From the NCBI GenBank assembly GCA_016191585.1, contig JACPVU010000034.1, forward strand, positions 1 through 36,273: a stretch of 36,273 nt of DNA. Reading direction: 5' to 3'. Below the pieces are notes generated by a model. That model made no database searches, was not told the origin of the DNA, and saw nothing but the letters and a program-made list of their open reading frames with translations. This stretch comes from an archaeon (GTDB lineage: Archaea > Aenigmatarchaeota > Aenigmatarchaeia > GW2011-AR5). Position numbers and translations under genes: made by a program. Shown in pieces: positions 9,844 through 33,178 of the stretch. Position 1 is the stretch's first letter. Each line of letters starts with the position of its first letter.

Positions 9844-10125
9844 ACGATATCTATTTCTAATTTTTCTTGCAGTATAACTAGGATTTTGGATATACTTTTC
9901 TTGACTGATACCGGTATCCTTTTTGTCTGTTATCAACGTGTTCAAATCCTCCGGTTTTTTTGTTGATACAATAAGCAGGTTCACTGTGATTTTCAGGTGT
10001 GTATGTTTTCAGGCTGTGTAAATTTTTCTCAAGTGTTAAGACTCCTAATAAATAAGTGGCAGTTAACATAGAAATAATTATGCAGTGATATGTATTTATT
10101 ATTGTAAAGTTGTTAGGTGTTAAAA

Positions 10126-10740
10126 ATGTTTCCAAGCAAGAACAGATATCTAAAAAATCTCTACAGCAGGATACCGCTCAAGAGCACAATTCTTTCCCAG
10201 AACATGGAAGGCGTCACACCGCCGTCTGTTTTTGTTGGACGTGTTGGATACCCTAAGGTGAGCATTGGTCCAATGATGACGCTGGAAGCAGAAGACCCTG
10301 TTACAGTAGACAGGCCCGAGAACTGGACAAGAAAGACCGTAGAAGATATATTGTCATTCAGGATGCAGCTCGTTCGCGGCAAACATACTGTTAATGTAAA
10401 GGAAAACAACAGTTTTGTCCAGAACATGCAGGAAATTGCACTCGCGAAAAATTCTGTTGACATAGAAACACAGTTCACAAAAATTCCTACAGGCACATTC
10501 ATCAACGAAGAAATACAGCCATACGGTCCGAGCGCGCCGATAAAATCCGTCAGTACAGGCAATATCAAAATGGAAAAAACATGGGAAAAGTCTATTACGA
10601 TACAGATATGCTTTCAAAGGACGCTGTTGTTGATTTGTACCAACACGGACTCCCGATATCTTCTATCCAGAAGGCATTTAGCACAGGATCCTTTGGCAAA
10701 GAGAGGAACAGGAAGCTCGTGCCGACAAGATGGTCTATAA
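10126..10740 (+). CDS. nreA: NreA-family DNA repair protein, N-terminal part (frameshifted gene)
   Basis: TPPSVFVGRVGYPKVSIGPM is the Nre family hallmark. AGGTG lies 6 nt before the ATG at 10126. Sequence after about 10580 in this frame looks non-homologous. Confidence 0.75.
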   Translation: MFPSKNRYLKNLYSRIPLKSTILSQNMEGVTPPSVFVGRVGYPKVSIGPMMTLEAEDPVTVDRPENWTRKTVEDILSFRMQLVRGKHTVNVKENNSFVQNMQEIALAKNSVDIETQFTKIPTGTFINEEIQPYGPSAPIKSVSTGNIKMEKTWEKSITIQICFQRTLLLICTNTDSRYLLSRRHLAQDPLAKRGTGSSCRQDGL

Positions 10741-11270
10741 CCGCAGTGGATGACATGCTCGGGAAGCGCCTTATAGAAGATATCAAAAACAATCCAACTA
10801 TCAATTCGTACCAAGTCTACGAATGCAACAAACTGAACAGCCGCTTTCTTGTCATGATGATGCCGACAGAATGGCAGTATGAATTTTTGGAAGCATTTGC
10901 CCACGTTTTTGGCAGTGAAGAAATGCTGTTTGTTGACTGGGAAGGATTTGAAGGAAGAAAAACGTACGCAGGTATGGGAGGATGTTATTATTCCGCGAGA
11001 CTGGCTGTAGCAGAAAAACTGAAGAAGATGAACAAACAGGCCGGTGCTCTCGTATTCAGGGAAAGCTATCACGGTTACGTGCCATTGGGCGTATGGCTTG
11101 TTCGTGAGCATGTCCGCGCGGCAATGAATTCACAGCCCAAGAATTTTGCGGATTTTGATTCGGCTTTGAGTTATATTTACTCAAAGCTCCTGTTACATCC
11201 GTCGAATTATGTCAAGCAAAGTGTATTGCTGAAGAAATCAATACTGAAGAACAGGACGAAAATTGTATGA
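10581..11270 (+). CDS. nreA: NreA-family DNA repair protein, C-terminal part (frame 3)
   Basis: KLVPTRWSITAVDDMLGKRL and GYVPLGVWLVREHVR are conserved Nre C-terminal blocks. This part continues the 10126 ORF after a 1-nt shift at the A6 run (10574-10579). Confidence 0.75.
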   Translation: MGKVYYDTDMLSKDAVVDLYQHGLPISSIQKAFSTGSFGKERNRKLVPTRWSITAVDDMLGKRLIEDIKNNPTINSYQVYECNKLNSRFLVMMMPTEWQYEFLEAFAHVFGSEEMLFVDWEGFEGRKTYAGMGGCYYSARLAVAEKLKKMNKQAGALVFRESYHGYVPLGVWLVREHVRAAMNSQPKNFADFDSALSYIYSKLLLHPSNYVKQSVLLKKSILKNRTKIV

Positions 11271-11280
11271 CTAATCGTGC

Positions 11281-12111
11281 TTATCTCTTGATAAGATCAT
11301 CTCTGTGGTAGCGTTTTATGAGGCTTTCCCAAAAGGGGTCTATTTTTTCAATGATTACATCATATCTTTTCTTATCATCTCTTGAGACTCTCTGTCGAAA
11401 TGCTATATCATCTTCTTCGCATCCAAAAGAGATGCATATCTTGGACGGGAAATATCCTGTATAAACGCCTCTTTCTAGTTCCATTTTTGGATGTATGATT
11501 CCGGTGCCTATATTTCCCAGTTCTGACAGATGGGGCCACAACTGCTCCTTGAAAATACTCACGCCGCCGAATGCAGTTGAAACAGAAATTATATGCGGGT
11601 TGAATCCGCCTGACATAGCTTCTAAAATAGCGTTTTTTGTTTTGCCTGCAAGGTGCTCAAACTCTGGTTCTTTCAGGAATTTGTATTTGATCATTTCTTT
11701 GTATTGAATGTCATTGTAGACAAATGCAACTGGCTTCAGTTGCGAAATCACTTCATAGTCTCCTTTTGTGAGTTCAACGTCGTCGGCAATAACATAACTC
11801 AGGAATGGCACAACTTCTTTGTCCATGCATTCGTCAATGTATTTGTCAAGTTTCTTCGGTTCCAGAGTTTCTCCGTCGTCCGACAGGGGACGTTCAATGC
11901 CTTTTACAAGAATATCAATATCCAGAAATTCTATGCAGGACGTATTTTCAATTATTTCCCTGAATATGATATATCCTTTTTCTTTTTCGTACGCTATACG
12001 ATTATTGAAGTCCAGGCGGTAGTTTACAGGCTGGCGCAAGTATATGTTATCAATATTTCTAAAGCTACCTCCACCCATAGTAAGACTTCTCCATCCTATA
12101 TCTTTGAGCAT
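11281..12111 (-). CDS. Hypothetical protein (276 aa, no recognisable family)
   Basis: Long ORF with normal-looking amino-acid composition. A TTTAAATA box at 12133-12140 lies 22-29 nt upstream of the start. Confidence 0.6.
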   Translation of the reverse strand: MLKDIGWRSLTMGGGSFRNIDNIYLRQPVNYRLDFNNRIAYEKEKGYIIFREIIENTSCIEFLDIDILVKGIERPLSDDGETLEPKKLDKYIDECMDKEVVPFLSYVIADDVELTKGDYEVISQLKPVAFVYNDIQYKEMIKYKFLKEPEFEHLAGKTKNAILEAMSGGFNPHIISVSTAFGGVSIFKEQLWPHLSELGNIGTGIIHPKMELERGVYTGYFPSKICISFGCEEDDIAFRQRVSRDDKKRYDVIIEKIDPFWESLIKRYHRDDLIKR

Positions 12112-12132
12112 GAATATACAACATAATTAAAG

Positions 12133-12140
12133 TTTAAATA
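12133..12140. promoter_or_regulatory. TATA-box-like TTTAAATA upstream of the 11281-12111 gene
   Basis: It lies 22-29 nt upstream of the minus-strand ATG at 12111. Confidence 0.35.
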
Positions 12141-12214
12141 TCCTACTTAATAGTGATTAAAATTTTATTGAATTTAGTTATTTTAATCTTATTTTTAAGC
12201 CTTCTTTCCAACTT

Positions 12215-13348
12215 ATGAGCATGTACACGCATACCATGGTGCATTACGCTGAAATCGCATTGAAGGGTCAGAACAGGCCTGTCTTTGAGAAGAAACTTGT
12301 AGAAAATATAAGGCACGCTATTGGCAGGAACATAAAGATCACGCGCCTGTACGGCCGCATACTCATAGAATCTGTAGATGCTTCTGTTCTCAATAACCTG
12401 AAGAACGTTTTTGGCATCTCTCATTTCTCGCCGTGCATAGAAACTTCGCTGGATATAGAGGAAATAAAGAAAGGTGCTGTAAAAATCGCTAAATCTGTGT
12501 CCGCGAAAACTTTCAAGATCGATACGTCAAAGAGCAACAAGTCGTTTCCAATGAGGACAATAGACATAAACACAGTTGTTGGAGATGCTGTAAACGTCGC
12601 GACCAACTGGGGTGTCAAAATGAAAGATCCCAACGTGACAGTCTACGTGGAAATAGCGGAAAAGGCGTTCGTGTACACGGAAAAAATACCCGGCCCAGGA
12701 GGATTGCCTGTTGGTTCTGCCGGCACAGTGTTGTGTTTGATGTCCGGAGGGATAGACTCGCCTGTTGCTGCCTGGTACGCAATGAAGCGTGGCTGCACCG
12801 TTATTTTTGTCCACTTTCATACATACACGTCGAAAATAGAAAACAAACTGGAGAAGATACTGGAAGCATTGTCAAAGTACCAGCATCCGTCGAAAATGTA
12901 CCTTGTTCCTTTCTACGGCGTCCAGGAGGAAATAATCAAGAACGTGCCAGAGAAGATGAGGATGATCGTCTACAGAAGGATGATGTTCAGGATAGCAGAA
13001 AAAATCATGGAAAAGGAAGGCGCTCTCGCGTTTGTGACAGGCGACAACATCGCCCAGGTTGCAAGCCAGACCCTTGAAAACATGAGCGTCATTTATGCAG
13101 ATGCTAAATATCCCATATTATCGCCACTACTGGGTTTTGACAAGAAGGAAATCATAAAGATAGCCGAGAAAATCGGGACATTCAAGGAATCTATTGTGCC
13201 GTACAAGGACTGCTGCTCGACAATGATAGGCAAGCACCCGGTGACAAAAGCGAAGAAAGACGTCATTGAAAACTACGAAGAAGCGCTCGACATAGAAAAA
13301 CTTGTTAACAATGCAGTAGAAAAAGCTGAAATAATGGAAAAGGAATAA
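12215..13348 (+). CDS. thiI: tRNA 4-thiouridine synthase ThiI (no rhodanese domain)
   Basis: N-terminal HYAEIALKGQNRPVFEKKL, a THUMP region and the PP-loop LMSGGIDSPVAAW. The 377-aa length fits archaeal ThiI. Confidence 0.85.
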   Translation: MSMYTHTMVHYAEIALKGQNRPVFEKKLVENIRHAIGRNIKITRLYGRILIESVDASVLNNLKNVFGISHFSPCIETSLDIEEIKKGAVKIAKSVSAKTFKIDTSKSNKSFPMRTIDINTVVGDAVNVATNWGVKMKDPNVTVYVEIAEKAFVYTEKIPGPGGLPVGSAGTVLCLMSGGIDSPVAAWYAMKRGCTVIFVHFHTYTSKIENKLEKILEALSKYQHPSKMYLVPFYGVQEEIIKNVPEKMRMIVYRRMMFRIAEKIMEKEGALAFVTGDNIAQVASQTLENMSVIYADAKYPILSPLLGFDKKEIIKIAEKIGTFKESIVPYKDCCSTMIGKHPVTKAKKDVIENYEEALDIEKLVNNAVEKAEIMEKE

Positions 13349-18295: not shown

Positions 18296-18613
18296 TTATA
18301 AGAAATTCTTCATTCTTGCATATATCTTCTTCGCTTTTTTTAATTCGTCAATCCCTTTTTTCGTGATCATGTAGTATTTTCTCTCTGGCCCGCCGGATTT
18401 CTCTGTTCTAGCTGCTTTAACGTATCCATCCATCTGCAGACGCTTTAGTATTATGTACGCGGTCATGTTGCCTGGATAGAAATCAAATACCTTCTCTATC
18501 TTTTCATTTATCTCGTATGCGTACAGCTTTTCTTTCTTGAGCAGCGACAATATGTATATCCACAAGTTGTCGTTTGTAAGGCTTTTCTTGAATCTTTCAG
18601 ACGGTGATGACAT
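18296..18613 (-). CDS. PadR-family winged-helix transcriptional regulator
   Basis: 105 aa. LWIYILSLLKKEKLYAYEINEKI...AYIILKRLQMDGYVKA...ERKYYMITKKG fits PadR. Confidence 0.8.
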   Translation of the reverse strand: MSSPSERFKKSLTNDNLWIYILSLLKKEKLYAYEINEKIEKVFDFYPGNMTAYIILKRLQMDGYVKAARTEKSGGPERKYYMITKKGIDELKKAKKIYARMKNFL

Positions 18614-19872: not shown

Positions 19873-20961
19873 ATGGAAAAGGACATAAGGCTTGCAGTAA
19901 TCGGCGTCGGAAACTGTGCGAGCAATCTTATCCAGGGAATTCAATATTATAAAGACGTTACTGATTCTTCTGAGCGTGTGCCGGGTCTGATGCACAACAG
20001 CCTTGGCGGCTATCTCATAAGGCATATCAAACCTGTTGTGGCATTTGACGTTCACGCAGGCAAGGTCGGCAAAGACCTGTCAGAAGCGATATGGGTCCAG
20101 CCAAATAATACAGTAAAGATAGCCGACGTGCCCGAAACCGGTGTGATTGTCCAAAAAGCACCTGTGCTGGATGGTATAGGCGAATTCATGTCAAAAGTCA
20201 CTCCTATTGATCATAGACAGACGCCTGTTGACATTGCAAAGACATTGAAAGAAAATGACGTCCAGGTTGTCCTGAGCTTTCTGCCTGTAGGAAGTGCTGA
20301 TGCAACAAGATTTTATGCACAAGAAATCATGAAAGCCGGATGCGGGTTTGTTAACGCTATTCCTGAATTCATAGGCAGTAATGCTGAATGGGCAAAGAAA
20401 TTCGAAGAAGCGGGCGTGCCTGTTCTTGGTGACGACACAAAGGCGCAATTCGGATCAACAATAGTTCATCGCGTGCTTTCGAGACTGTGCGAGGAACGCG
20501 GTTCAACTGTAGATAATACTTATCAGCTGAACGTCGGCGGCAACACAGACTTTTACAATATGCTCGAGCGCACAAGGCTGACGAGCAAGAAGATATCAAA
20601 GACAGAAGCAGTCCAGAGCCAGTTCAGCAAAAAACTGCCTGACGATCATATTCACATAGGACCAAGCGATTACGTTCCATGGCTTAAGTCAAAAAAACTT
20701 GGTTTCATACGCATAGAAGGCCGCTTATTTGGTGACATACCTTTCAACATAGAATGCCGTCTTGATGTAGAAGACAAGGCCAACTCATCTGGTGTGGTCA
20801 TAGACTCAATAAGATGCGTGAAGCTCGCATTAGACCGTAACGTAGGCGGCACACTTATCTCGCCTTCGTCCTACTTCTGCAAGCATCCCCATCAGCAGTT
20901 CCCTGACTCGGTTGCAAGGCAGATGACCGAGGAATTCATCAGCGGCCAGAGGGAAAGGTAA
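19873..20961 (+). CDS. ino1: myo-Inositol-1-phosphate (inositol-3-phosphate) synthase
   Basis: IRLAVIGVGNCASNLIQGIQYYK matches the Ino1 NAD-binding N-terminus of the prokaryotic MIPS family. AGGTG lies 4-8 nt before the ATG at 19873. Confidence 0.85.
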   Translation: MEKDIRLAVIGVGNCASNLIQGIQYYKDVTDSSERVPGLMHNSLGGYLIRHIKPVVAFDVHAGKVGKDLSEAIWVQPNNTVKIADVPETGVIVQKAPVLDGIGEFMSKVTPIDHRQTPVDIAKTLKENDVQVVLSFLPVGSADATRFYAQEIMKAGCGFVNAIPEFIGSNAEWAKKFEEAGVPVLGDDTKAQFGSTIVHRVLSRLCEERGSTVDNTYQLNVGGNTDFYNMLERTRLTSKKISKTEAVQSQFSKKLPDDHIHIGPSDYVPWLKSKKLGFIRIEGRLFGDIPFNIECRLDVEDKANSSGVVIDSIRCVKLALDRNVGGTLISPSSYFCKHPHQQFPDSVARQMTEEFISGQRER

Positions 20962-21005
20962 GCATTTTAAGAAGATAATTCTTATCATTCTAATAAGGTG
21001 TGATA

Positions 21006-21878
21006 ATGGCAGACATGCTGAGTCATCTGGAAAACATGTTTGGCGAAGTAAGAAATTACATGCTTACGCAGGGTTACAAGTCTCTTGGAATTCTTGGCGC
21101 CAACGTAAAAGGGAGCGACGTTACCGCGAAGTTTGACCTCGAATCCGAGAACGTTGCAATAAACTACTGCAAAAAACATGGCCTACCCGTCCAGATATGG
21201 ACAGAGGAACAAGGAATAGTTGACGTTTCAAGAGATCCTAAATATATATTTATTTTTGACCCCTGCGATGGATCTACGAACTTCAAGAATGGAATAGAGG
21301 GAAGTGCATTCTCTGCGGCTTGTGTACCTTTCAGTAAGGAAGGAATAGCAAATCCAAAAGACGTTGTTTACGCCTTGATAGGAAGTGTGGTGTCAGGTTC
21401 TGTCTTGAAGGGCTCGAAAGGAAAAGGGGTGACTTATAAGGGACCTTTTAACGGATTCAAGAAAACAGTAGCGCATACGTCAAAAAATAGCAACATACAG
21501 GCGGCACGTATTGAGATAGACCTTGATTTTGGTCTTAATGAGGCTGCAGGAGTCACGACAGAAAAGACCAAGATGAAGAGAATACATCGCCTCATCACAA
21601 CTGGCATAAAGAACATACGAAGAAACGGTTCTGCTGCCATGGGTCTTAGCTACGTGCCAACAGGTGCGGTCAACGCTTATGTTGATGTGAGAGACCTTTC
21701 CACGCCTGAGAACTGGATGGCCGCCTACCTGCTGGTAAGGGAAGCGGGCGGCGTGTTCACGGACCCGTTCGGTAATGACATCGGAGAAGTGGATAACATG
21801 ACAAAACCATACAATTACGTTGCTTCAGGAAATAAAAAGATACACAGAACCATACTTGAAAGACTTGACATGGAGTGA
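21006..21878 (+). CDS. Inositol monophosphatase family protein (IMPase/FBPase-like)
   Basis: WTEEQG, FIFDPCDGSTNF (the DPxDGTxNF motif) and LLVREAGG. AAGGTG lies upstream of the ATG at 21006. Confidence 0.8.
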   Translation: MADMLSHLENMFGEVRNYMLTQGYKSLGILGANVKGSDVTAKFDLESENVAINYCKKHGLPVQIWTEEQGIVDVSRDPKYIFIFDPCDGSTNFKNGIEGSAFSAACVPFSKEGIANPKDVVYALIGSVVSGSVLKGSKGKGVTYKGPFNGFKKTVAHTSKNSNIQAARIEIDLDFGLNEAAGVTTEKTKMKRIHRLITTGIKNIRRNGSAAMGLSYVPTGAVNAYVDVRDLSTPENWMAAYLLVREAGGVFTDPFGNDIGEVDNMTKPYNYVASGNKKIHRTILERLDME

Positions 21879-21882
21879 TTAT

Positions 21883-22476
21883 ATGACACAATACAACAAA
21901 AAATATTTCAGTTCATTTTCAGTGAAAGTAGGAATGGCTTTCAGTAAAATACCTCTTTCTCCTAACCAGTGGACATCTATATCTATTGTACCCGCTATTC
22001 TGGGATTCATTTCTGCATTTTACGGAAATATTTTCATTGCTGTAATTCTTTTTGCAATAACGGCCTTTATAGATATAATAGATGGATCAGTCGCACGCGT
22101 AATCGGCCGCGTAACAACCAAGGGAGCTTACATATCAATGATCGCGGAGAGGTACGTAGAAATATTGATGATATTATCCGTATTATTTATAGGACTGCCA
22201 AATCTATACTTTCCGTTGAACTATTGGCTCATTGTACTTGTATTCGGTTCTGTAATGTCGACATACGTAAATTTTATTCATTCTGAAGACAAACTGAAAA
22301 AGAAGGAAGGATTTTTTATTCATGCCGAATGGCTTATTCTAATGTTTATAGTTTTCATAATATCCGTATTTTCTGACAAACTTTATGCCACGTATATAAT
22401 TGCTCTGATTGCCCTGCTTTCAAACCTTTCAGCTTTACATGGAATATATTATACATATAAATCAACGAGGGAGTAG
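21883..22476 (+). CDS. CDP-alcohol phosphatidyltransferase family protein with a divergent catalytic motif
   Basis: A multi-TM protein with DIIDGSVARVIGRVTTKGAYISMIAE. The first half of D(x2)DG(x2)AR...G(x3)D(x3)D is kept, but the last two Asp positions read S and E. Confidence 0.7.
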   Translation: MTQYNKKYFSSFSVKVGMAFSKIPLSPNQWTSISIVPAILGFISAFYGNIFIAVILFAITAFIDIIDGSVARVIGRVTTKGAYISMIAERYVEILMILSVLFIGLPNLYFPLNYWLIVLVFGSVMSTYVNFIHSEDKLKKKEGFFIHAEWLILMFIVFIISVFSDKLYATYIIALIALLSNLSALHGIYYTYKSTRE

Positions 22477-22478
22477 TC

Positions 22479-23312
22479 ATGAATAAAATAGACATGCTTC
22501 TTGTTGGCCATTATACACAAGATATAATTATAACTGCGGATGGCAAAAAACATGAAAAACAGGGCGGTCCACCATCTTATATGACACCATTTCTGAAGAC
22601 CGCTGAAATCAATTTTCGTATAATTTCTAAGATAGGCAAAGATTTTAGATACACACACAACTTGTATAATCCTATCACTGTTTGTGATACACCATCAACA
22701 TGCTGGTTTGCTGATTATACAAAAGCAGAAGTCATGATGAAATTTCTTTCTGTGTGTGAATCCATAAAGCCAGAGGAGATCAAAGACGATTGTACTATTG
22801 CACTAGCATGCGGTTGCGCTAACGAAATCCCACAAGAAACTATTTTAAAAATGCGAAACACATCAAAATTTCTTCTTTGTGACATTCAAGGTTTTTGTCG
22901 TCGCACGAAGGAAGACGGCACAATTTTTTATATCGATCCCATGAAAGATTGGTTCAATGATTATGCCCACTTGTTCGATTTTATTAAGATTAGTCTACCC
23001 GAGTCAAAGATTATTGATATCAAAACAATGAAAAAGAAGACAAATGTGATAATAACAAAAGGTGGACAAGGATGTACTATAATACCGAAGAATGACAAGC
23101 CTATAGATATCCCGACAATACCTCTCAAAGAAGATGATCCTACAGGCGCAGGCGATGCCTTCCTCGCAGGTTTTGCATACGGATTGTTGAAAAATAAATC
23201 AATGGAAGAATGCTGCCGCATGGGCAACTTCTTCGGTGGTTTGGCTGTTAAACATATTGGCGTGCCTAAGGTAACGAAAGAAGACCTAAAGAATATTTTG
23301 TCTTTTAAGTAA
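22479..23312 (+). CDS. PfkB/ribokinase-family carbohydrate kinase
   Basis: A GG dipeptide region (EKQGGPPSY) and the C-terminal DPTGAGDAFLAGFAYGL signature. It starts 3 nt after the previous stop. Confidence 0.8.
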   Translation: MNKIDMLLVGHYTQDIIITADGKKHEKQGGPPSYMTPFLKTAEINFRIISKIGKDFRYTHNLYNPITVCDTPSTCWFADYTKAEVMMKFLSVCESIKPEEIKDDCTIALACGCANEIPQETILKMRNTSKFLLCDIQGFCRRTKEDGTIFYIDPMKDWFNDYAHLFDFIKISLPESKIIDIKTMKKKTNVIITKGGQGCTIIPKNDKPIDIPTIPLKEDDPTGAGDAFLAGFAYGLLKNKSMEECCRMGNFFGGLAVKHIGVPKVTKEDLKNILSFK

Positions 23313-23335
23313 ATATAACGAGAAAAGTAATTTTT

Positions 23336-24088
23336 ATGAGAATACTGGGAATATACAGGGAAGCTAACACTGCCGGAAAGCCAGAAGCCGACATAAAGAT
23401 AGCAGATGCTGTTGCAGACGAACTCAGGATCAGGGGACATGAAGTCGTAATGACAGATAACCCAGAAACATACGACTTTGGTGAATTCAATATTATATTT
23501 TCAATGGCCAGAAACCCTTCAACTCTTGATATATTGGAAAAAGTGGAAGACAAAGGAATTAATGTTGTAAACTCGCCGAAGGCCATAAGACGATGTTTTA
23601 ACAGGAAATTTGTCTATGACATCATGCAACAGAACAAAATACCTCTTCCAAAAACAGAAGTACTTTCAATTGACGATGTTCCTGTTTTTTTCCCGATTGT
23701 GCTTAAGCGCATTGATACACACGGCAAATCTGGCGATACAGCTCTTGTGAAGAATGAACAGGAAATGCAGGAAACACTGGAAAGGTTCCAATCTATAGGC
23801 GTAAAGCACCTCATAGTACAGCATTTTATCGAAGGTACAAACGTGAAATTCTATGGCATCGGAGAAAAAGTATATCTCCCCGATTATGATGGTGAAGGAA
23901 AAGAAGATATGACGAATTTCGCAGGCAGGATTGCACGGCTGTTAGGAATGAACGTTTATGGAGGAGACATAATTTACAATGGTGATGTCTTTGTCATAGA
24001 CTTCAATGACTGGCCGTCTTTCAGTTCAATTCGCGAACAGGCGGCAAAAGATATAGCAGAGCTTATAGTCAACAAGATTAGTGAGTAG
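23336..24088 (+). CDS. Small ATP-grasp enzyme of unknown specificity
   Basis: 250 aa with an ATP-grasp layout: FPIVLKRIDTHGKSGDTALV, LIVQHFIEGTNVKFYGIG, GGDIIYNGDVFVIDFNDWPSF. Confidence 0.6.
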   Translation: MRILGIYREANTAGKPEADIKIADAVADELRIRGHEVVMTDNPETYDFGEFNIIFSMARNPSTLDILEKVEDKGINVVNSPKAIRRCFNRKFVYDIMQQNKIPLPKTEVLSIDDVPVFFPIVLKRIDTHGKSGDTALVKNEQEMQETLERFQSIGVKHLIVQHFIEGTNVKFYGIGEKVYLPDYDGEGKEDMTNFAGRIARLLGMNVYGGDIIYNGDVFVIDFNDWPSFSSIREQAAKDIAELIVNKISE

Positions 24089-24089
24089 C

Positions 24090-24659
24090 ATGATGGAAGA
24101 AAAATCACGCAGTAAAGTCAAAAAAATAGCTGACCGTGTGGGTTCAAAACTCGGAAGAATAGGTTTTACTCCAAATTCTCTCACATTTTTAACGCTTATT
24201 TCAGGTATTTTGGCCGCTTATGCGATATATACGGGGCACTTCCTGTATGGAATAATTTTGATACTGCTTTCAGGGGTTTTTGATTTTTTTGATGGTTCTG
24301 TGGCTCGTGCAATGAATAGAACAACAAAAATAGGTGCTATGCTGGATTCAGTTGTTGATAAAATAACAGAACTTTCCATATATTTTGGTATTGCATTATA
24401 CAATCCCGTATTATTCTTTCCAGCATCTCTTGCAATGGTCATGTTCATGCTTTCAAGTTACATAAGTAAACATGCAGGTGCAATAGGTGCAAAATCTGGC
24501 GGAGGATTCATGCAAAGAAAAGAAAGGATATTACTTCTCATAATTGGCATGATATTCTTTGACTACATGAGTTATATGCTCTATGTTATAGCGATGTTTT
24601 CTATCTTTACAGCTATTCAGAGATTATGGAGAACGGGAAAAATTCTAAGATGGAAGTAA
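24090..24659 (+). CDS. CDP-alcohol phosphatidyltransferase with a canonical motif (candidate archaetidylinositol-phosphate synthase type)
   Basis: DFFDGSVARAMNRTTKIGAMLDSVVDK is a complete D(x2)DG(x2)AR(x8)G(x3)D(x3)D motif. The protein is multi-TM. Its ATG at 24090 follows directly after the ATP-grasp stop. Confidence 0.8.
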   Translation: MMEEKSRSKVKKIADRVGSKLGRIGFTPNSLTFLTLISGILAAYAIYTGHFLYGIILILLSGVFDFFDGSVARAMNRTTKIGAMLDSVVDKITELSIYFGIALYNPVLFFPASLAMVMFMLSSYISKHAGAIGAKSGGGFMQRKERILLLIIGMIFFDYMSYMLYVIAMFSIFTAIQRLWRTGKILRWK

Positions 24660-25304
24660 TCTCTTTATTTTTTTATGAGCTTTTGCGATCGGAGAAATAA
24701 AGTGAATCAATTGATTTGACCTCTGACCTTCAAATGTTGTTTTTCTCTTTAGTATGGCTTTTCTAAGGCCTTCTGCATCAGTTACATCGGCAAGGGTATA
24801 TGCTTTGCCGACCTCCCATGATGTATGGGCATCACTGCCAGCAGTGAATGAAAGTCTGTTTTTCCTCGCAAAATTCAGCGCCTTTTTATTTTCTTCATCA
24901 CTCAGACACCTTGAATTGAAAACTTCTATTGCATCTACCTTGTTTTTTATTTCTTCTATTCTCTTGAAAGGCTTTTTAGACCTGAAAGGATGGGAAACAG
25001 TTATCAGGCCATTCTGGCTTCTTATCTCGTCTATCACTTCAAGAAGAGACCTGGATCGTATTTCTTCTGTAAGAAAAAGGCCTATAAGTTCACCCACTGT
25101 CCTGTTATTTTCTTTTATTTTGATTTCCATACCAGGAATTATTATGAAATTCCTTATGTTTTTCAGCTGGTTGCAAGCCTTCATTGTATCGTGGTCTGTA
25201 ACAGCTATCCCGTCAACCCGCTTTTTTGCTATTTCAATAAGCTTAAGGGGCGGAATTATTCCATCCTTTGAGCAGTTTGTGTGTGTGTGAAGATCAAACC
25301 TCAT
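24645..25304 (-). CDS. PHP-domain metal-dependent phosphoesterase
   Basis: MRFDLHTHTNCSKDG, AVTDHDT, VSHPF and GSDAHT are the PHP His/Asp motifs. Its 3' end overlaps the 24090-24659 gene by 15 nt in convergent orientation. Confidence 0.8.
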   Translation of the reverse strand: MRFDLHTHTNCSKDGIIPPLKLIEIAKKRVDGIAVTDHDTMKACNQLKNIRNFIIIPGMEIKIKENNRTVGELIGLFLTEEIRSRSLLEVIDEIRSQNGLITVSHPFRSKKPFKRIEEIKNKVDAIEVFNSRCLSDEENKKALNFARKNRLSFTAGSDAHTSWEVGKAYTLADVTDAEGLRKAILKRKTTFEGQRSNQLIHFISPIAKAHKKIKRLLPS

Positions 25305-25395: not shown

Positions 25396-25593
25396 ATGAA
25401 AGTCATATCTAAGACAAAGAAAATAGGCGGTTCGATAATGGTCAGGATACCGAAGGATCTGGCGGAGGCAGAAGGTATAACAGAAAACCAGACCGTCGAG
25501 ATAGAGATCAGGAAACCCAAAAAAGACTTTTTTGGCGCGTTAAAAGGCATAGGCAGCTTTACAAAAGAAGATGAGTTGAATACTCATGAATAA
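25396..25593 (+). CDS. vapB: AbrB/SpoVT-type antitoxin (VapB-like)
   Basis: KKIGGSIMVRIPKDLAEAEGITENQTVEIEI is a swapped-hairpin AbrB-like fold motif. GGTGG lies before the ATG at 25396. It overlaps the PIN gene by 8 nt. Confidence 0.75.
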   Translation: MKVISKTKKIGGSIMVRIPKDLAEAEGITENQTVEIEIRKPKKDFFGALKGIGSFTKEDELNTHE

Positions 25594-25972
25594 GTTTGTT
25601 ATTGATTCGTGGGCGTGGATAGAATATCTTAATGGTACACAGAGGGGCCTGAAGGCTCGTGAGATAATACAAAAATCCGATAATGAAATATTTACAAATG
25701 TCATATCCCTATCTGAAATAATTAGCGTAGCAAAAAGAAAGAATATGGATATTGATACGGCAGAAGAAGCCGTATTGTCAAACTCAGAGATAATAGGAAT
25801 AGACCAAGATACTGCTAGAGAAACAGGTTTGTTGCACGCCCAAACGAGAAAGAGTATAAGAGATTTTGGCTTGGGGGACGCCTTCGTACTTTTTGCAGCA
25901 AGAAAAATCAACGCAAGAATTCTGACAGGCGATCCACATTTCAAAGGATTTAAAGAAACAGTCTTTATTTAG
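25586..25972 (+). CDS. vapC: PIN-domain toxin (VapC-like)
   Basis: 128 aa. Acidic residues sit in the PIN pattern: VIDSWAWIEY, LSEIISV, GLGDAFVLFAA, TGDPHF. Confidence 0.8.
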   Translation: MNKFVIDSWAWIEYLNGTQRGLKAREIIQKSDNEIFTNVISLSEIISVAKRKNMDIDTAEEAVLSNSEIIGIDQDTARETGLLHAQTRKSIRDFGLGDAFVLFAARKINARILTGDPHFKGFKETVFI

Positions 25973-26035
25973 CAATACTTATGTCATTTTACCGTGGGGT
26001 GTATTGATGTGTCGATACCAGATTTCATACAGAAA

Positions 26036-26371
26036 ATGAGCAATGTAGAATGGATCATACCAAAGACCTATAAAGTAGGCATGCAGGTCCCGGCAAAGAT
26101 TATTGCAAGTCAGGACATAGTTGCTAACATGGATATGCAGGTCTACGACCAAATAACAAATGTAGCTACATTGCCAGGAATAATCAACCACGCTTATTGC
26201 ATGCCCGACGGTCACAGCGGCTACGGTTTTCCAATAGGCGGCGTAGCAGCATTCGACCTCAAGAAAGGCATCATATCCCCCGGTGGCATTGGATTTGATA
26301 TCAACTGCACCCATCCCAATAGTAAGATACTTTGCAAGTTGGGCTATTGGAAAAAAATAAAGGATATATAG
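26036..26371 (+). CDS. rtcB: RtcB tRNA-splicing ligase N-extein plus first residues of the intein (frame 2)
   Basis: [47 protein letters not shown] is near-canonical RtcB. The intein Cys1 follows at 26306. The frame ends at 26371. Confidence 0.85.
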
Positions 26372-27648
26372 AAGGTGAGATAAAGGCAGAGAACCTGTAC
26401 ACTAATGACAGAATAATGGTGTACCCTTATAAAGGCGTAGAATATGAAGAGCCAACTGACGATATTGTTCTTGATAGAAAGAACATAGAAGATGCGCTAG
26501 ATCAATTAGGTATTAAAAATGACGGCAATGCAAGAATTCAGATATTCAAGTTTTTGGATAAGTTAGAAATACTTCCGATTCGATATAATTCCGCAAAGCT
26601 TCCGATATTATTAAAATTAATGGGATTTATCTTTGGTGATGGCGTCATTTCATTTGTAAACAAAAGAACAGGCTTTATTCATTTTTACGGCAAAAGAGAA
26701 GATCTTGAGGAAATTGCAATAGATTTGATGGAACTTGGTATACCGTCTAAAATAAATGAGAGACAGAGAAAACATAAAATTGTGACGTATTATGATGAAA
26801 TAAAATTTGATTTCGTAGAAAATTCTATAATTAAAAAATCCACGGCTCTTTCTGCACTTTTTATGGCCCTTGGTATGCCATTCGGATCAAAAACGTCTAA
26901 AGAATATCATATACCAAAATGGATATTTAATTGTCGCCTTTGGCAAAAAAGGCTGTTTTTGGCCGCCTTTTTTGGTGCAGAATTATCAAAACCGGCAACT
27001 TTAAATAAATACAATTTTTATTCGCCCCAACTTAATATGAATAAGCTTGAAAGCCTGGTGCACAACGGCATAGATTTTCTTAATGAGATTAGGCTTTTAC
27101 TTTCTGAATTCGAAATAAGTACAGCGCAACCTGTAAAAGTCAGCGGATATCAATACAATGGTGCATACGGAAAAACTACTGGACTTAGACTGCTGATACA
27201 TGGCAACCCAAGAAACCTTCTTAATCTGTATGAGAAAATCAACTTTGAATACAATAAGGAAAAGAAAACTGAGGCGTGTTTGGCAATAAGCTATATACGT
27301 CTTAAAAATTTCATAAAAGATAAGCGGAAATTTATTAGAGAATCTGCAAAAAACCTTTACGATAATGGTATAAGCATAAATGAAATTCGACCATTATTTA
27401 CGGCTGAATTTACGCCTGAACAATTTATTAATCATTCTGTCTGGACAAAATTCAAGAGTTCTCCCAGAATCGCATTCGCCTTTATGTCATTTGAGGAATT
27501 CAAAAATCAATATCGTATAGGTTCTAATGGCATAGTTGCTGAAAAAATAGCAGAAATAAAGAAAATTCCTTATAATGGATATGTCTATGATGTAACTATG
27601 AATGATTCTAATCATAATTTCATTGCTGATTCTATAGTATCGCATAAC
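26306..27648 (+). mobile_element. Intein with a LAGLIDADG homing endonuclease, inserted before the catalytic Cys of RtcB
   Basis: Boundaries are DIN|C...SHN|CG. The two LAGLIDADG motifs are LMGFIFGDG (about 26611-26650) and [11 protein letters not shown] (about 26953-26993). The length of 1343 nt is not divisible by 3. Spot G+C counts are 18/60 at 26581-26640 against 33/60 in the extein at 28621-28680. Confidence 0.85.
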
Positions 27649-28809
27649 TGTGGCATGAGGCTTTTGAAAACAAACCTTACTATTGATGACGTGAAACCAC
27701 GTCTGAAAGAAATTGTCAATCTTTTGTTTCAGCGTGTCCCTGCTGGCGTTGGTTCTTCAGGCTTCATGAAATTTACGCGCGACCAGTTCAAAGAAGTGGT
27801 CACAGAAGGCAGCAAATGGTGCGTAGAAAAGGGATACGGCTGGGACGAAGACCTGAAGAGAACAGAGGAAAACGGCTGCATGGAAGGCGCTGATACTGCT
27901 GCTGTCAGCAAAAGAGCCATCGACCGCGGCATAACACAGATCGGTACTCTGGGCTCAGGCAACCACTATCTGGAAATACAGGTCGTCAAGGGGGAAAACA
28001 TATTTGAAAAACACATAGCAAAAGAATTTGGCTTGTTCCCCGGACAAATAGTTGTGATGTTTCACTGCGGTTCACGCGGTTTCGGCCACCAGATAGGAAC
28101 TGACTATCTTGAACTGTTTTTGGACGTAATGGAAAAGAAATACGGGATAAAGATACTTGATAAAGAGCTTGCGTGCGCGCCTTTTGAAAGTAAGGAGGGC
28201 CAGGATTACTACAAGGCAATGAAGTGCGCTGTGAACATGAGCTTCGCCAACAGGCAGGTCATATTGCACAGGGTACGTGAATGTTTCTCGCAGATCTTCA
28301 AGAAGACTCCTGAGGAAATGGAAATGCACCAGATATATGACGTGGCGCACAACATAGCAAAAATAGAGAAGCACGACGTCAATGGCACAGAGAAAGAAGT
28401 GCTCGTACACAGGAAAGGCGCTACAAGATCATTCGGACCAGGGAGAGAGGAAATTGTAGAAGAATACCGTCATCTTGGCCAGCCTGTAATTATTGGAGGT
28501 TCGATGGAAACAGGTTCCTATCTTCTCCTGGGCACGGAAAAAGCCATGAAGGAAACCTTTGGCACAACAGCTCATGGATCAGGCCGTACCATGAGCAGAA
28601 CACGCGCGAAGCAGCTCTTCCGCGGCGACAAGCTGCAGAAGGACATGGAAAACCGCGGCATTTATGTCAAGACAGTCAGCATGTCCGGCCTTGCCGAGGA
28701 AGCGGGCGCAGCGTACAAGGACGTCGACGAGGTCATAAACGCGACCCATGACGCAGGCATATCAAAAAAGGTCGTCAAACTCGTGCCGATCGGAAACGTG
28801 AAGGGATAA
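26332..28809 (+). CDS. rtcB: RtcB intein remainder (LAGLIDADG endonuclease) plus the RtcB C-extein (frame 1)
   Basis: The intein ends ...IVSHN at 27648. The C-extein [10 protein letters not shown]...[10 protein letters not shown]...[10 protein letters not shown]...HRKGATR...TAHGSGR... is collinear with archaeal RtcB. Confidence 0.9.
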
Positions 28810-31875: not shown

Positions 31876-32307
31876 ATGGCATACAAATATATCGAAGGTC
31901 TTACAATGGCAGACATAGCTTTCGAGGCATCAGGCAAAACACTTGATAAGATGTTTGAATCGGCGGGATTGGCTGTCACGAACACTATGGTCAAAGACCT
32001 CAAGTCCGTCAGACATAAAATAAAGAAGACAGTCAAACTGAAAAACAAAGATATTAGCAGGTTATTGTTCAATTTTTTGCAGGAATTTGTATACTGGAAA
32101 GACTCAAAATGTCTGCTATTTCCGAAGGTCAGCGTCAAAATAAAAGAGACAAAAGGTGTGTACAATCTTGCAGCTACTTTTTATGGCGACAAGCTCGACA
32201 TGAAAAAACACGAGCTGATTGTCGACGTCAAAGCAGTAACAATGCATAAGTTTGAAGTGAAGAAAGAAAAAACATGCTGGAAATGCATAGTCATTCTGGA
32301 TATTTAA
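31876..32307 (+). CDS. Archease (RtcB activator)
   Basis: [33 protein letters not shown]..., [11 protein letters not shown] and the C-terminal CIVILDI fit the archease family. I chose the ATG at 31876. Confidence 0.75.
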
Positions 32308-33178
32308 TCGTTAAAATCTTCAAAGTCCGGCGTCTTTTCTTAGTTCTTCTGCCTTGTCCGGAACGGTCGACTTTCGAGGGGTCCTTGCCTGAGAAAGCGC
32401 CGCCGCCGTGCCTGCCTATTCCGCCGTAAGTGTCAGCTATTATCTTTCGCCCTGTTACGCCCGTGTCACCTTCAGGACCGCCGATTATGAACCTGCCTGT
32501 TGCGTTTATGAACAGTTTAGTTTCAGCATCAATATAACTTCCGCAAACAGGCTTGATTACATTCTCAATTATATCTTTTTTCAATTCGTTTTCATCAATT
32601 TCTTCCCTATGCTGCTGTGCTATTACAATGGCGTCAACGCGCTTCGGTTTTTCGTTCTCGTATTCAATAGTTACCTGGCTCTTTCCGTCAGGTCCCAGGT
32701 GCTTGATTATGTTGTTCTTTCTTACGTAAGCCATCCGTTCTGTGAGTCTGTGTGAAAGAATTATCGGTAATGGCATAAGTTCAGGGGTTTCGTTGCACGC
32801 AAAACCGTACATCATTCCCTGGTCTCCGGCGCCCTGTTCCCTGTCATCTTTCTCGGTCACGCCAAGAGAAATATCAGGCGACTGTTCATGGATAGAAACT
32901 AAAACACCTGCGTCGTAGCAGTCGATTCCAAAAGCCGGGTCTGTATAGCCTATTTCTTTTAACGTATTTCTTACTGTCTTCTGGACATCAACATAAGCCG
33001 TTGTTGTAACCTCGCCTGCGACAACCACGAGCCCTGTCGTCGTCAGCGTCTCAACAGCAACACGGCCGTTAGGGTCCTGTTTGTATATCTCATCCAGAAT
33101 CGCATCGCTTATCTGGTCACAGATTTTGTCAGGGTGCCCATCGGTTACAGATTCGCTTGTTATGAAATATTTTCTCAT
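32291..33178 (-). CDS. metK: Bacterial-type S-adenosylmethionine synthetase, internally deleted or truncated
   Basis: [37 protein letters not shown] and [31 protein letters not shown] are canonical MetK. After DRS the frame reads basic junk into the archease gene. About 100 aa of the C-terminal domain is absent. Confidence 0.85.

Follow-up and report, generated by a model that had tools for sequence, protein, structure and literature searches.

The window analyzed here is the entire 36,273-bp contig JACPVU010000034.1 (assembly GCA_016191585.1) of an archaeon of the Aenigmatarchaeota. It holds an operon of six genes with myo-inositol-1-phosphate synthase (MIPS) at its head and a convergent PHP-family gene at its end. 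Based on the analysis of protein families, predicted structures and gene neighborhoods, the operon was found to be a composite of two modules, and it would make an inositol phospholipid head group of the archaetidylinositol type; a probability of about 0.5 is given to this reading. The evidence comes from a PfkB protein with the signature of myo-inositol kinases, from a degenerate CDP-alcohol phosphotransferase (CDPOH1) that stands beside an intact one (CDPOH2), and from an ATP-grasp protein whose family is linked to inositol clusters in both archaea and bacteria and is sometimes fused to their enzymes.

Gene Content and Layout of the Operon

The operon consists of six plus-strand open reading frames (ORFs), which with their alternative starts span 19867/19873-20961, 21000/21006-21878, 21820/21883-22476, 22479-23312, 23336-24088 and 24081/24090-24659. 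The intergenic gaps, measured from the ATG starts used in an earlier sequence-only reading of this DNA, were 44, 4, 2, 23 and 1 nt, and the convergent PHP gene overlapped the last operon gene by 15 nt. The six co-directional genes, their gaps and this overlap were thus as that reading had given them. The genes are as follows.

18296-18613, minus strand: PadR-family regulator (Pfam PadR)
19873-20961, plus strand: MIPS, the synthase of myo-inositol-1-phosphate, that is, inositol 3-phosphate (Ins(3)P or Ins3P) (Pfam PF01658, Inos-1-P_synth)
21006-21878, plus strand: phosphatase of the inositol monophosphatase (IMPase)/FBPase family (Pfam Inositol_P)
21883-22476, plus strand: CDPOH1, CDP-alcohol phosphotransferase type 1, degenerate (Pfam PF01066, CDP-OH_P_transf)
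22479-23312, plus strand: PfkB/ribokinase-family protein, putative ATP-dependent myo-inositol kinase resembling myo-inositol 3-kinase (MI3K) (Pfam PfkB, 69 bits)
23336-24088, plus strand: ATP-grasp enzyme of an unmodelled family with a DFNDWPSF motif (AlphaFold/Foldseek fold)
24090-24659, plus strand: CDPOH2, CDP-alcohol phosphotransferase type 2, intact and similar to archaetidylinositol phosphate synthase (AIPS) and phosphatidylinositol phosphate synthase (PIPS) (Pfam PF01066)
24645-25304, minus strand: PHP-family metal-dependent phosphoesterase (Pfam PHP and PHP_C)

Five of the six operon proteins and the PHP protein exceeded the Pfam gathering score, the exception being the ATP-grasp protein. 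All domain calls made from the sequence were upheld by Pfam and NCBIfam or, for the ATP-grasp protein, by the AlphaFold fold, and the motifs GVGNCAS, DPCDGSTNF and DPTGAGDAF were confirmed in the translations. The claim that the operon lacks a nucleotidyltransferase also stood: no NTP_transferase domain was found by Pfam in the 37 window ORFs scanned (7 cluster ORFs and 30 others), and tblastn with two NTP transferases of bacterial clusters gave no match in the window. The nearest named homologs of three operon proteins belong to Candidatus Aenigmarchaeota. Scans of the window for Rfam families, tRNAs and sigma-70 promoters or terminators gave nothing informative, the promoter scan being one not built for archaea.

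Composite Origin of the Operon

The closest syntenic relative was locus L092 (GCA_964373255.1), in which MIPS is 80%, RtcB 80%, MetK 83% and PadR 70% identical to the window proteins. The site in this genome reads PadR (minus strand)-MIPS-CDPOH1-MazE-PIN-RtcB and holds no IMPase, PfkB, ATP-grasp, CDPOH2 or PHP gene, so that a six-gene order shared with relatives was not found; the closest relative has MIPS-CDPOH1 only, the minimal MIPS-AIPS-like pair of the archaetidylinositol route. The window MIPS matched Pfam PF01658 with 109 bits and aligned over its full length with TIGR03450 (460 bits, under the equivalog cutoff of 638), and it is 57-59% identical to the L001 and L007 orthologs. The archaeal loci other than the window that carry the ATP-grasp gene have the following gene contents, (-) denoting the minus strand.

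L001 (Aenigmarchaeota): MIPS, MFS (-), ATP-grasp, 295-aa HAD-like protein, CDPOH2, PHP (-), broken CDPOH1
L098: ATP-grasp, HAD-like protein, CDPOH2, PHP (-)
L003: MarC, ATP-grasp, HAD, CDPOH2, PHP
L007: MIPS, CDPOH1, 162-aa protein, ATP-grasp, HAD-like protein, CDPOH2, HAD, PHP (-)
L097: ATP-grasp, CDPOH2, PfkB, MFS, VTT, with overlapping genes

When the window is included, no more than one gene stands between ATP-grasp and a CDPOH2-type transferase in six of six archaeal loci, a phosphatase of some family is present in five (all but L097), and a PHP gene is likewise present in five. The conserved unit is ATP-grasp, CDPOH2 and a phosphatase, usually accompanied by PHP. Module A, apparently the ancestral one at this site, would comprise MIPS and the AIPS-like CDPOH1, the latter now degenerate, and the added module B would comprise PfkB, ATP-grasp, CDPOH2 and PHP; the IMPase-family gene appears to have been inserted after MIPS.

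Several further proteins were observed in these loci. The proteins of 280-307 aa that follow ATP-grasp in L001, L007 and L098 were considered as PfkB orthologs and rejected, as they form a Pfam-less HAD-like family located between ATP-grasp and CDPOH2 (L001 8765-9652, L007 2833-3675, L098 842-1765). Its members are 35-50% identical to one another and carry the motifs FDxGGPxxDD at the N-terminus and FVDDS at the C-terminus; the family has no Pfam or NCBIfam match and is absent from the window. A 423-aa protein in L097 (582-1853), upstream of and overlapping the ATP-grasp gene, had a C-terminal HVO_A0114-type winged-helix domain as its sole match, its N-terminal 330 residues being without assignment. 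Toxin-antitoxin genes were observed beside the inositol module (PIN at window 25586-25972, MazE-PIN at L092 10849-11425, and HicA/HicB in the flanks of L001, L003 and L007), and their presence may be a sign that the module is mobile or was inserted recently.

The Two CDP-Alcohol Phosphotransferases

Both transferases passed the Pfam PF01066 cutoff of 22 bits (CDPOH1 52 bits, CDPOH2 71 bits), and the archaetidylinositol phosphate synthase family NF040950 was the best-scoring family for both of them (CDPOH2 130 bits, CDPOH1 91 bits, cutoff 180). CDPOH2 also scored 108 bits with the PIPS model (cutoff 170) and 50 bits with the DIPPS model. Judged by these scores, the two proteins are related to the NF040950 equivalog and are not members of it.

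CDPOH2 reads DFFDGSVARAMNRTTKIGAMLDSVVDK, that is, the full DxxDGxxAR-x8-GxxxDxxxD signature with four Asp residues present, and it has the ER..ER and QR motifs as well. It is 54-57% identical to the copies of L001, L003, L097 and L098, each of which adjoins an ATP-grasp gene. CDPOH1 reads DIIDGSVARVIGRVTTKGAYISMIAER and fails the four-Asp signature: the third Asp is replaced by Ser (D85S) and the fourth by Glu (D89E), the segment GAYISMIAER standing in place of the GxxxDxxxD part. With R150W the conserved arginine of ER..ER is lost as well, and with Q186H and R187G the QR at the C-terminus. To place these changes, 18 CDPOH1-type and 4 CDPOH2-type proteins were aligned, and 40 columns kept in at least 16 of 17 other members were taken as conserved. 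The window CDPOH1 departed from these columns at 10 positions and the L007 copy at 9, whereas all other members departed at 0-3. In L001 the CDPOH1 gene is interrupted by an in-frame stop codon and has lost its DxxDG segment, and Lys stands where the fourth Asp would be. The genomes with a degenerate or broken CDPOH1 (window, L007 and L001) are exactly those in which CDPOH1 coexists with the ATP-grasp-CDPOH2 module, and the window CDPOH1 is only 51% identical to its L092 ortholog, compared with 80-83% for MIPS, RtcB and MetK.

On these residues, CDPOH1 is probably inactive or changed in function and CDPOH2 is likely the working head-group transferase, which may be read as a functional replacement of the ancestral CDPOH1 by CDPOH2 in these DPANN genomes. 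The decay of CDPOH1 alongside module B makes one working head-group transfer more likely than two, and the two distinct head-group transfers proposed in the sequence-only reading are accordingly unlikely.

The PfkB Protein Carries a Myo-inositol Kinase Signature

The myo-inositol 3-kinase of Thermococcus kodakarensis (TK2285) contacts inositol through D12, G26, Q136, R140 and D219 (Nagata et al., PMC5931981), and the pyrophosphate (PPi)-dependent 1-kinase of Thermotoga maritima (TM0415) does so through D11, N78, Q141 and R145, with D234 as the catalytic residue (PMC5931981). In a profile alignment to TM0415, the window PfkB protein was found to keep D15, G29/G30, Q137, R141 (DxQGFxR; LLCDIQGFCRR) and D226 of GAGD. 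Its Ala224/PTGAGD sequence is of the ATP type, like that of TK2285 and unlike that of TM0415, and the PPi-type RXGRGD motif was not found in it. When the structural model (pLDDT 90.9) was searched with Foldseek, TM0415 and the T. kodakarensis MI3K ranked first and third to seventh, with template modelling (TM) scores of 0.75-0.79 in both normalizations (top entries 1vk4, 5ysp and 3w4s), whereas other ribokinase-family members gave target-normalized scores of 0.61-0.72. The window protein (277 aa) is in the same length class as TK2285 and TM0415 (273-286 aa), although the sequence identity to them is only ∼19%. A close homolog carries the JGI name 1D-myo-inositol 3-kinase. The nucleoside kinase MJ0406, which was the best sequence-profile match, was rejected as a model for the function, because in the same alignment it is without the QGFxR motif and its structural match is poorer.

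By its signature, then, the protein is a predicted myo-inositol kinase, and the inositol-kinase-like character claimed from the sequence was borne out by the contact residues and the top fold matches. At the two positions that set regiospecificity, where substitutions give the 1-kinase the specificity of a 3-kinase (PDB entry 7e4l, title), the window protein has Ala78 and Met87, the 3-kinase Leu/Leu and the 1-kinase Asn/Ser. Its residues are non-polar like those of the 3-kinase TK2285 but not identical to them, which makes Ins(3)P the more likely product. In L091, a PfkB protein 30% identical to that of the window lies between CarS/VTT and a CDPOH1-type transferase, and this position ties the kinase clade to lipid head-group synthesis. 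That locus (56-2645 of an archaeal metagenome-assembled genome, GCA_053529875.1), where a CarS-like CDP-archaeol synthase, a VTT/DedA protein, the PfkB inositol-kinase homolog and the CDPOH1-type transferase are clustered, is a compact archaetidylinositol cluster of the salvage type.

The ATP-Grasp Protein Belongs to an Unmodelled Family

The best Pfam match of the 250-aa protein was ATP-grasp_3, with 20 bits and so under the cutoff of 23. The AlphaFold model (pLDDT 95.9) gave Foldseek TM scores of 0.72-0.80 to LysX/ArgX, RimK, Ddl and ITPK1, and the predicted fold of the 23336-24088 product is unambiguously ATP-grasp. As the scores are equal for LysX/RimK/Ddl and for ITPK1, a fold search cannot separate a kinase from a ligase. 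The family comprises 596 representatives at 50% identity (E ≤ 1e-30), in which K124, K171, D222 and N224 never vary, while position 211 is always acidic and in 98% of cases Asp (D211). A Pfam scan of all 56 family members found no family that covers them: RimK (PF08443) matched 4 of the 56, the window protein not among these, and Ins134_P3_kin (PF05770) matched 1 of the 56 (E = 0.008). The best NCBIfam match of the window protein was the RimK family TIGR00768 (63 bits, cutoff 143), and the PDB profile matches were PsnB (a graspetide ester-forming macrocyclase; 2e-7), RimK (4e-5) and ITPK1 (6e-4 to 6e-3, over the C-terminal Mg-site stretch only).

A C-terminal D-x-N-x-[FW]-P-S-[YF] motif is common to the family and to Entamoeba ITPK1. 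ITPK1 is an ATP-grasp enzyme that phosphorylates Ins(3)P (PMC6900528), the compound from MIPS or TK2285, and shares with the window protein the fold (TM ∼0.75) and the Mg-binding D-x-N followed by aromatic-Pro-Ser-aromatic. The window protein is 70-100 residues shorter, however, and the two have no significant full-length sequence relationship. According to the profile scores, the protein is neither RimK nor ITPK1 and stands in a family of its own; it lies outside the RimK and CofF groups and is tightly linked to inositol clusters by its gene neighborhoods, which agrees with the earlier proposal. The favored reading, put at slightly under even odds, is that the enzyme would act as a kinase on inositol or inositol phosphate and so supply the transferase.

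The ATP-Grasp Family in Putative Bacterial Inositol Lipid Clusters

The exact motif DFNDWPSF was found in at least 600 stretches in species-representative genomes, 599 of which were confirmed by tblastn, and gene neighborhoods were counted in the best 80 of these 599. All 80 loci come from bacteria, among them Bacteroidales, Desulfarculales, Syntrophobacteraceae, Binataceae and Bacteriovoracaceae, and the family as a whole is present in inositol-lipid loci of hundreds of bacteria from the gut and from soil. In 75 of the 80, the gene immediately upstream of ATP-grasp encodes an IPCT-like NTP transferase, and in 70 the gene immediately downstream encodes a CDP-alcohol transferase; the loci also hold a HAD hydrolase (74/80), an LPG_synthase_TM protein (41/80) and MIPS (28/80). 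The partner NTP transferase aligns with the IPCT domain over its full length. Fusion proteins were also observed, namely six of NTP_transferase with ATP-grasp that were confirmed by Pfam, four further representatives that match such a fusion by length and domain position, and two confirmed fusions of ATP-grasp with HAD.

These loci correspond to a putative "alternative" inositol-lipid cluster of B. vulgatus and Prevotella, the function of which is unconfirmed, defined by Heaver et al. (2022; PMC9246714) as the NTP transferase BVU_RS13095, the phosphatidyltransferase RS13105 and the HAD protein RS13115. The term "ATP-grasp" occurs nowhere in that paper (PMC9246714), and a search of the literature on ATP-grasp enzymes and inositol lipids gave no description of this gene. 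By synteny in Phocaeicola loci, the skipped locus tag RS13100 would be the ATP-grasp gene. With a conserved and sometimes fused ATP-grasp enzyme left out of the model, the bacterial alternative pathway as drawn is probably incomplete, and inositol lipids affect fitness in gut Bacteroidetes (PMC9246714).

The proposal that the window pathway is without precedent does not hold, given this bacterial counterpart (PMC9246714). Both clusters have the ATP-grasp family (30-36% identical) beside a CDP-alcohol phosphotransferase, a phosphatase and often MIPS, and those bacteria produce an inositol phospholipid or sphingolipid. The bacterial cluster is defined by an NTP transferase, a CDP-alcohol transferase and a HAD protein near MIPS, whereas the window has neither an NTP transferase nor a HAD protein. 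The window transferase is a short one of AIPS/PIPS-like type, in place of the type with 300-490 aa; the phosphatases of the window belong to the IMPase and PHP families instead of HAD, and a PfkB kinase is added. The window operon is a relative of that cluster and not a member of it.

Two variants were observed among the bacterial loci. In the Muribaculaceae loci L056, L061 and L065 (about 9900-13100), ATP-grasp, a GtrA-like protein, a PIPS-like transferase and PAP2_3 (BT_1522/AUR1-like) form a BT_1523/BT_1522-type cluster in which the ATP-grasp gene holds the MIPS position of the B. thetaiotaomicron cluster; no NTP transferase was found in them and no MIPS within 10 kb. In L026 (4626-16198) and also in L010, L014, L063, L066 and L070 (Desulfarculales, Bacteriovoracaceae and Binataceae), the genes that come after HAD, NTP-transferase and ATP-grasp encode a class-III aminotransferase and an oxidoreductase of the GFO/IDH/MocA family. 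A B12-radical SAM enzyme and an MMPL transporter are encoded in these loci too, as is a CDP-alcohol transferase of 490 aa, and the loci look like a pathway to an aminocyclitol-containing lipid.

Candidate Phosphatases and a Possible Regulator

The IMPase-family protein scored 72 bits with Pfam Inositol_P (PF00459, cutoff 27) and 127 bits with NF009321 (cutoff 264), its best PDB matches were PH1897 and the MJ0109 IMPase, and the metal motifs EE (TEEQG) and DPCDGS are both present. The gene was found in the window only; it is absent from L001, L003, L007, L092 and L097, where HAD or HAD-like proteins fill the phosphatase role. The best NCBIfam match of the PHP protein was the CehA/McbA-type metallohydrolase domain (72 bits, cutoff 80). 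PHP adjoins CDPOH2 in L001, L098, L007 and L003, being co-directional in L003, and the L001 protein is 69% identical to that of the window and has the identical 15-nt convergent overlap. To our knowledge, the phosphatase that completes archaetidylinositol synthesis in archaea has not been assigned, and the PHP, HAD-like and IMPase genes tied to the module are concrete candidates for it.

In L092 (70% identity) and L001 (42%), the immediate upstream neighbor of MIPS is a divergent PadR gene; in the window, three small ORFs lie between the two. PadR is a possible regulator of the operon.

Proposed Pathway and Alternative Explanations

In the proposed pathway, Ins(3)P would be made from glucose-6-phosphate by MIPS, or salvaged inositol would enter by way of the PfkB kinase. 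The ATP-grasp enzyme would phosphorylate inositol or, more likely, inositol monophosphate, and would in this way condition the substrate of CDPOH2. The PfkB and ATP-grasp genes are found together in two compact operons, those of the window and of L097; it is therefore unlikely that they do the same job, and inositol monophosphate is favored over free inositol as the substrate. CDPOH2 would condense the ATP-grasp product with a CDP-activated lipid, and the IMPase-family enzyme, the PHP enzyme or both would strip the extra phosphate(s). In this scheme the identities of the genes, the kinase signature of PfkB, the decay of CDPOH1 and the linkages and fusions of the ATP-grasp family in both domains are observed, and the reaction of the ATP-grasp enzyme, the lipid donor, the place of each phosphatase and the end product are inferred. 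A lipid product is also suggested by the flippase-like membrane proteins (LPG_synthase_TM, GtrA and VTT) that recur beside the module. The other product once suggested for the operon, a solute resembling di-myo-inositol-phosphate (DIP), is unlikely in view of the missing cytidylyltransferase, the AIPS/PIPS-like CDPOH2 and these flippase-like neighbors.

The view that the genes form one inositol-related unit, and that this unit departs from the textbook archaetidylinositol route as well as from the IPCT/DIPPS route, was supported. The archaetidylinositol route runs from MIPS through archaetidylinositol phosphate (AIP) synthase to AIP phosphatase, and MIPS, an AIPS-like transferase and phosphatases are present in the window; that route, however, has no role for ATP-grasp or PfkB, and the window has a degenerate transferase copy. 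MIPS, a CDP-alcohol phosphotransferase and an IMPase-type phosphatase are likewise shared with the IPCT/DIPPS route, but the cytidylyltransferase domain of that route is absent from the window, and CDPOH2 scores 130/108 bits as AIPS/PIPS against 50 as DIPPS. The step that PIPS/AIPS-type clusters and NTP-transferase-type clusters have in common is the supply or processing of inositol phosphate, which would be the acceptor in the former and the substrate for CTP activation in the latter.

Kinase, phosphatase and nucleotidyltransferase genes encoded together, and sometimes fused, are a pattern of sugar-activation pathways. In the ADP-heptose route, the HldE kinase/adenylyltransferase works together with GmhB, a phosphatase of the HAD type, and a CDP-alcohol phosphotransferase carries out the last step of the Kennedy route. 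The likeness of the bacterial clusters to these routes is one of logic only, in the joint encoding of such enzymes and in the kinase-nucleotidyltransferase fusions; it served as an analogy from which the hypothesis was drawn, the families and substrates being unrelated and without homology. It is tentatively suggested, as a minority possibility, that the DFNDWPSF ATP-grasp family is an unrecognized prokaryotic inositol-phosphate (or cyclitol) kinase and the step so far lacking from an inositol-lipid pathway of wide distribution. Its bacterial members would work with HAD and the IPCT-like cytidylyltransferase to convert Ins3P to inositol bisphosphate (InsP2), Ins1P and CDP-inositol, thereby completing a Kennedy-type route, and in DPANN archaea the enzyme would couple to the dedicated AIPS-like transferase that displaces the ancestral one.

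Several observations weigh against the proposed archaetidylinositol-type pathway. In both sequence (PDB profiles) and fold (Foldseek TM scores), the ATP-grasp protein is equidistant from ligases and kinases. The most conserved inositol-phosphate contacts of human ITPK1 are H167, K199 and R212 (PMC6900528). Equivalents of H167 and R212 were sought by alignment and not found, and the RimK alignment puts a non-basic residue at the ITPK1 Arg position. K171, on the other side, presumably fits the K199 position. The C-terminal metal-binding Asp of the IMPase-family protein is Asn (in PENWM) in both PDB alignments, and a CDP-archaeol synthase was not found on the 36-kb contig. If the acceptor were an inositol bisphosphate, the reaction would be one undescribed for any AIPS or PIPS. 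The archaeal clusters are without an NTP transferase, so the archaeal and bacterial contexts may not share a mechanism.

The foremost alternative is that the ATP-grasp enzyme is a ligase: it would convert a carboxylate, for example that of an amino acid, to an acyl phosphate and then attach it as an ester or amide to the inositol head group or its precursor, giving a decorated inositol lipid. PsnB and RimK as the best PDB profile matches and the RimK family as the best NCBIfam match (63 bits) speak for such a ligase, though the RimK-family scores all fall far under their cutoffs and Pfam RimK matched only 4 of 56 members. The class-III aminotransferase and GFO/IDH/MocA oxidoreductase directly after ATP-grasp in proteobacterial and Binataceae loci could create a cyclitol amine for acylation; this aminotransferase is lineage-specific, however, whereas ATP-grasp is universal in these clusters. 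LPG_synthase_TM, found in 41 of the 80 bacterial loci, is MprF-like and would also suit a ligase. Against this, P. veroralis and B. vulgatus, which bear the cluster, are reported to make plain PI-dihydroceramide (PMC9246714), and the nucleotidyltransferase and phosphatase fusions are those of a classic kinase-containing activation pattern. A ligase is considered rather unlikely on balance.

It is improbable that both transferases are active and yield two products, perhaps one of them a DIP-like solute, from a further phosphorylated or ligated inositol phosphate. The operon does hold two PF01066 genes, each of which has archaetidylinositol-phosphate synthase as its top match and a weaker match to the DIPPS part of IPCT/DIPPS, and L007 keeps both transferase types. 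CDPOH1, however, is without the third and fourth signature Asp and two conserved arginines, and its ortholog has degenerated in L007 and become a pseudogene in L001; the searches of the window gave no cytidylyltransferase, and the flippase-like proteins, together with CarS in the related locus L091, favor a lipid. Lastly, the ATP-grasp gene might be an incidental neighbor that encodes a RimK/LysX-type protein or cofactor glutamate ligase, with only MIPS, PfkB and one transferase of importance. The weak best family matches (RimK, MptN, LysX and CofF) would fit this, yet the linkage to inositol clusters holds in 6 of 6 archaeal loci, the IPCT-like NTP transferase is the direct upstream neighbor in 75 of 80 bacterial loci, and the linkage spans Bacteroidota, Desulfarculales, Binataceae, Bacteriovoracaceae and others, with fusions; this explanation has a very small probability.

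The class to which the archaetidylinositol-type pathway belongs, inositol phospholipid head-group synthesis, is already known. New are the cross-domain and sometimes fused ATP-grasp partner, which is apparently undescribed, the dedicated transferase subtype that displaces the ancestral one, and the PHP/HAD-like phosphatase candidates. How DPANN archaea acquire and tailor their membrane lipids is an open question in the field, and the operon shows a lineage that keeps, and actively replaces, head-group chemistry. If the DFNDWPSF family is indeed the inositol-phosphate kinase tentatively suggested above, its coupling to CDPOH2 may enable a host-dependent archaeon to add new head groups to acquired lipids, or to form a phosphorylated archaeal inositol lipid similar to phosphatidylinositol phosphates.

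Other Features of the Contig

The other genes of the contig include Nre, SepF, ThiI and an intein-bearing RtcB. The bacterial-type S-adenosylmethionine synthetase MetK (32291-33178, minus strand) covers residues 3-275 of the 385-aa L092 ortholog, and its C-terminal third had no tblastn match in the window. RtcB (25994-28809) has an intein of ∼445 aa that is not in the L092 ortholog. Its N-extein (26015-26308) lies in another frame than the ORF of the intein and C-extein (26332-28809, with the C-extein at 27646-28806), an arrangement that points to a disruption of the gene or a frameshift where the two meet, or else to an error in sequencing there. Nre (10117-11270) is split into the overlapping ORFs 10117-10740 and 10581-11270, the first matching Nre_N over positions 12-162 and the second over 160-264 together with Nre_C, and this split is likely a frameshift.

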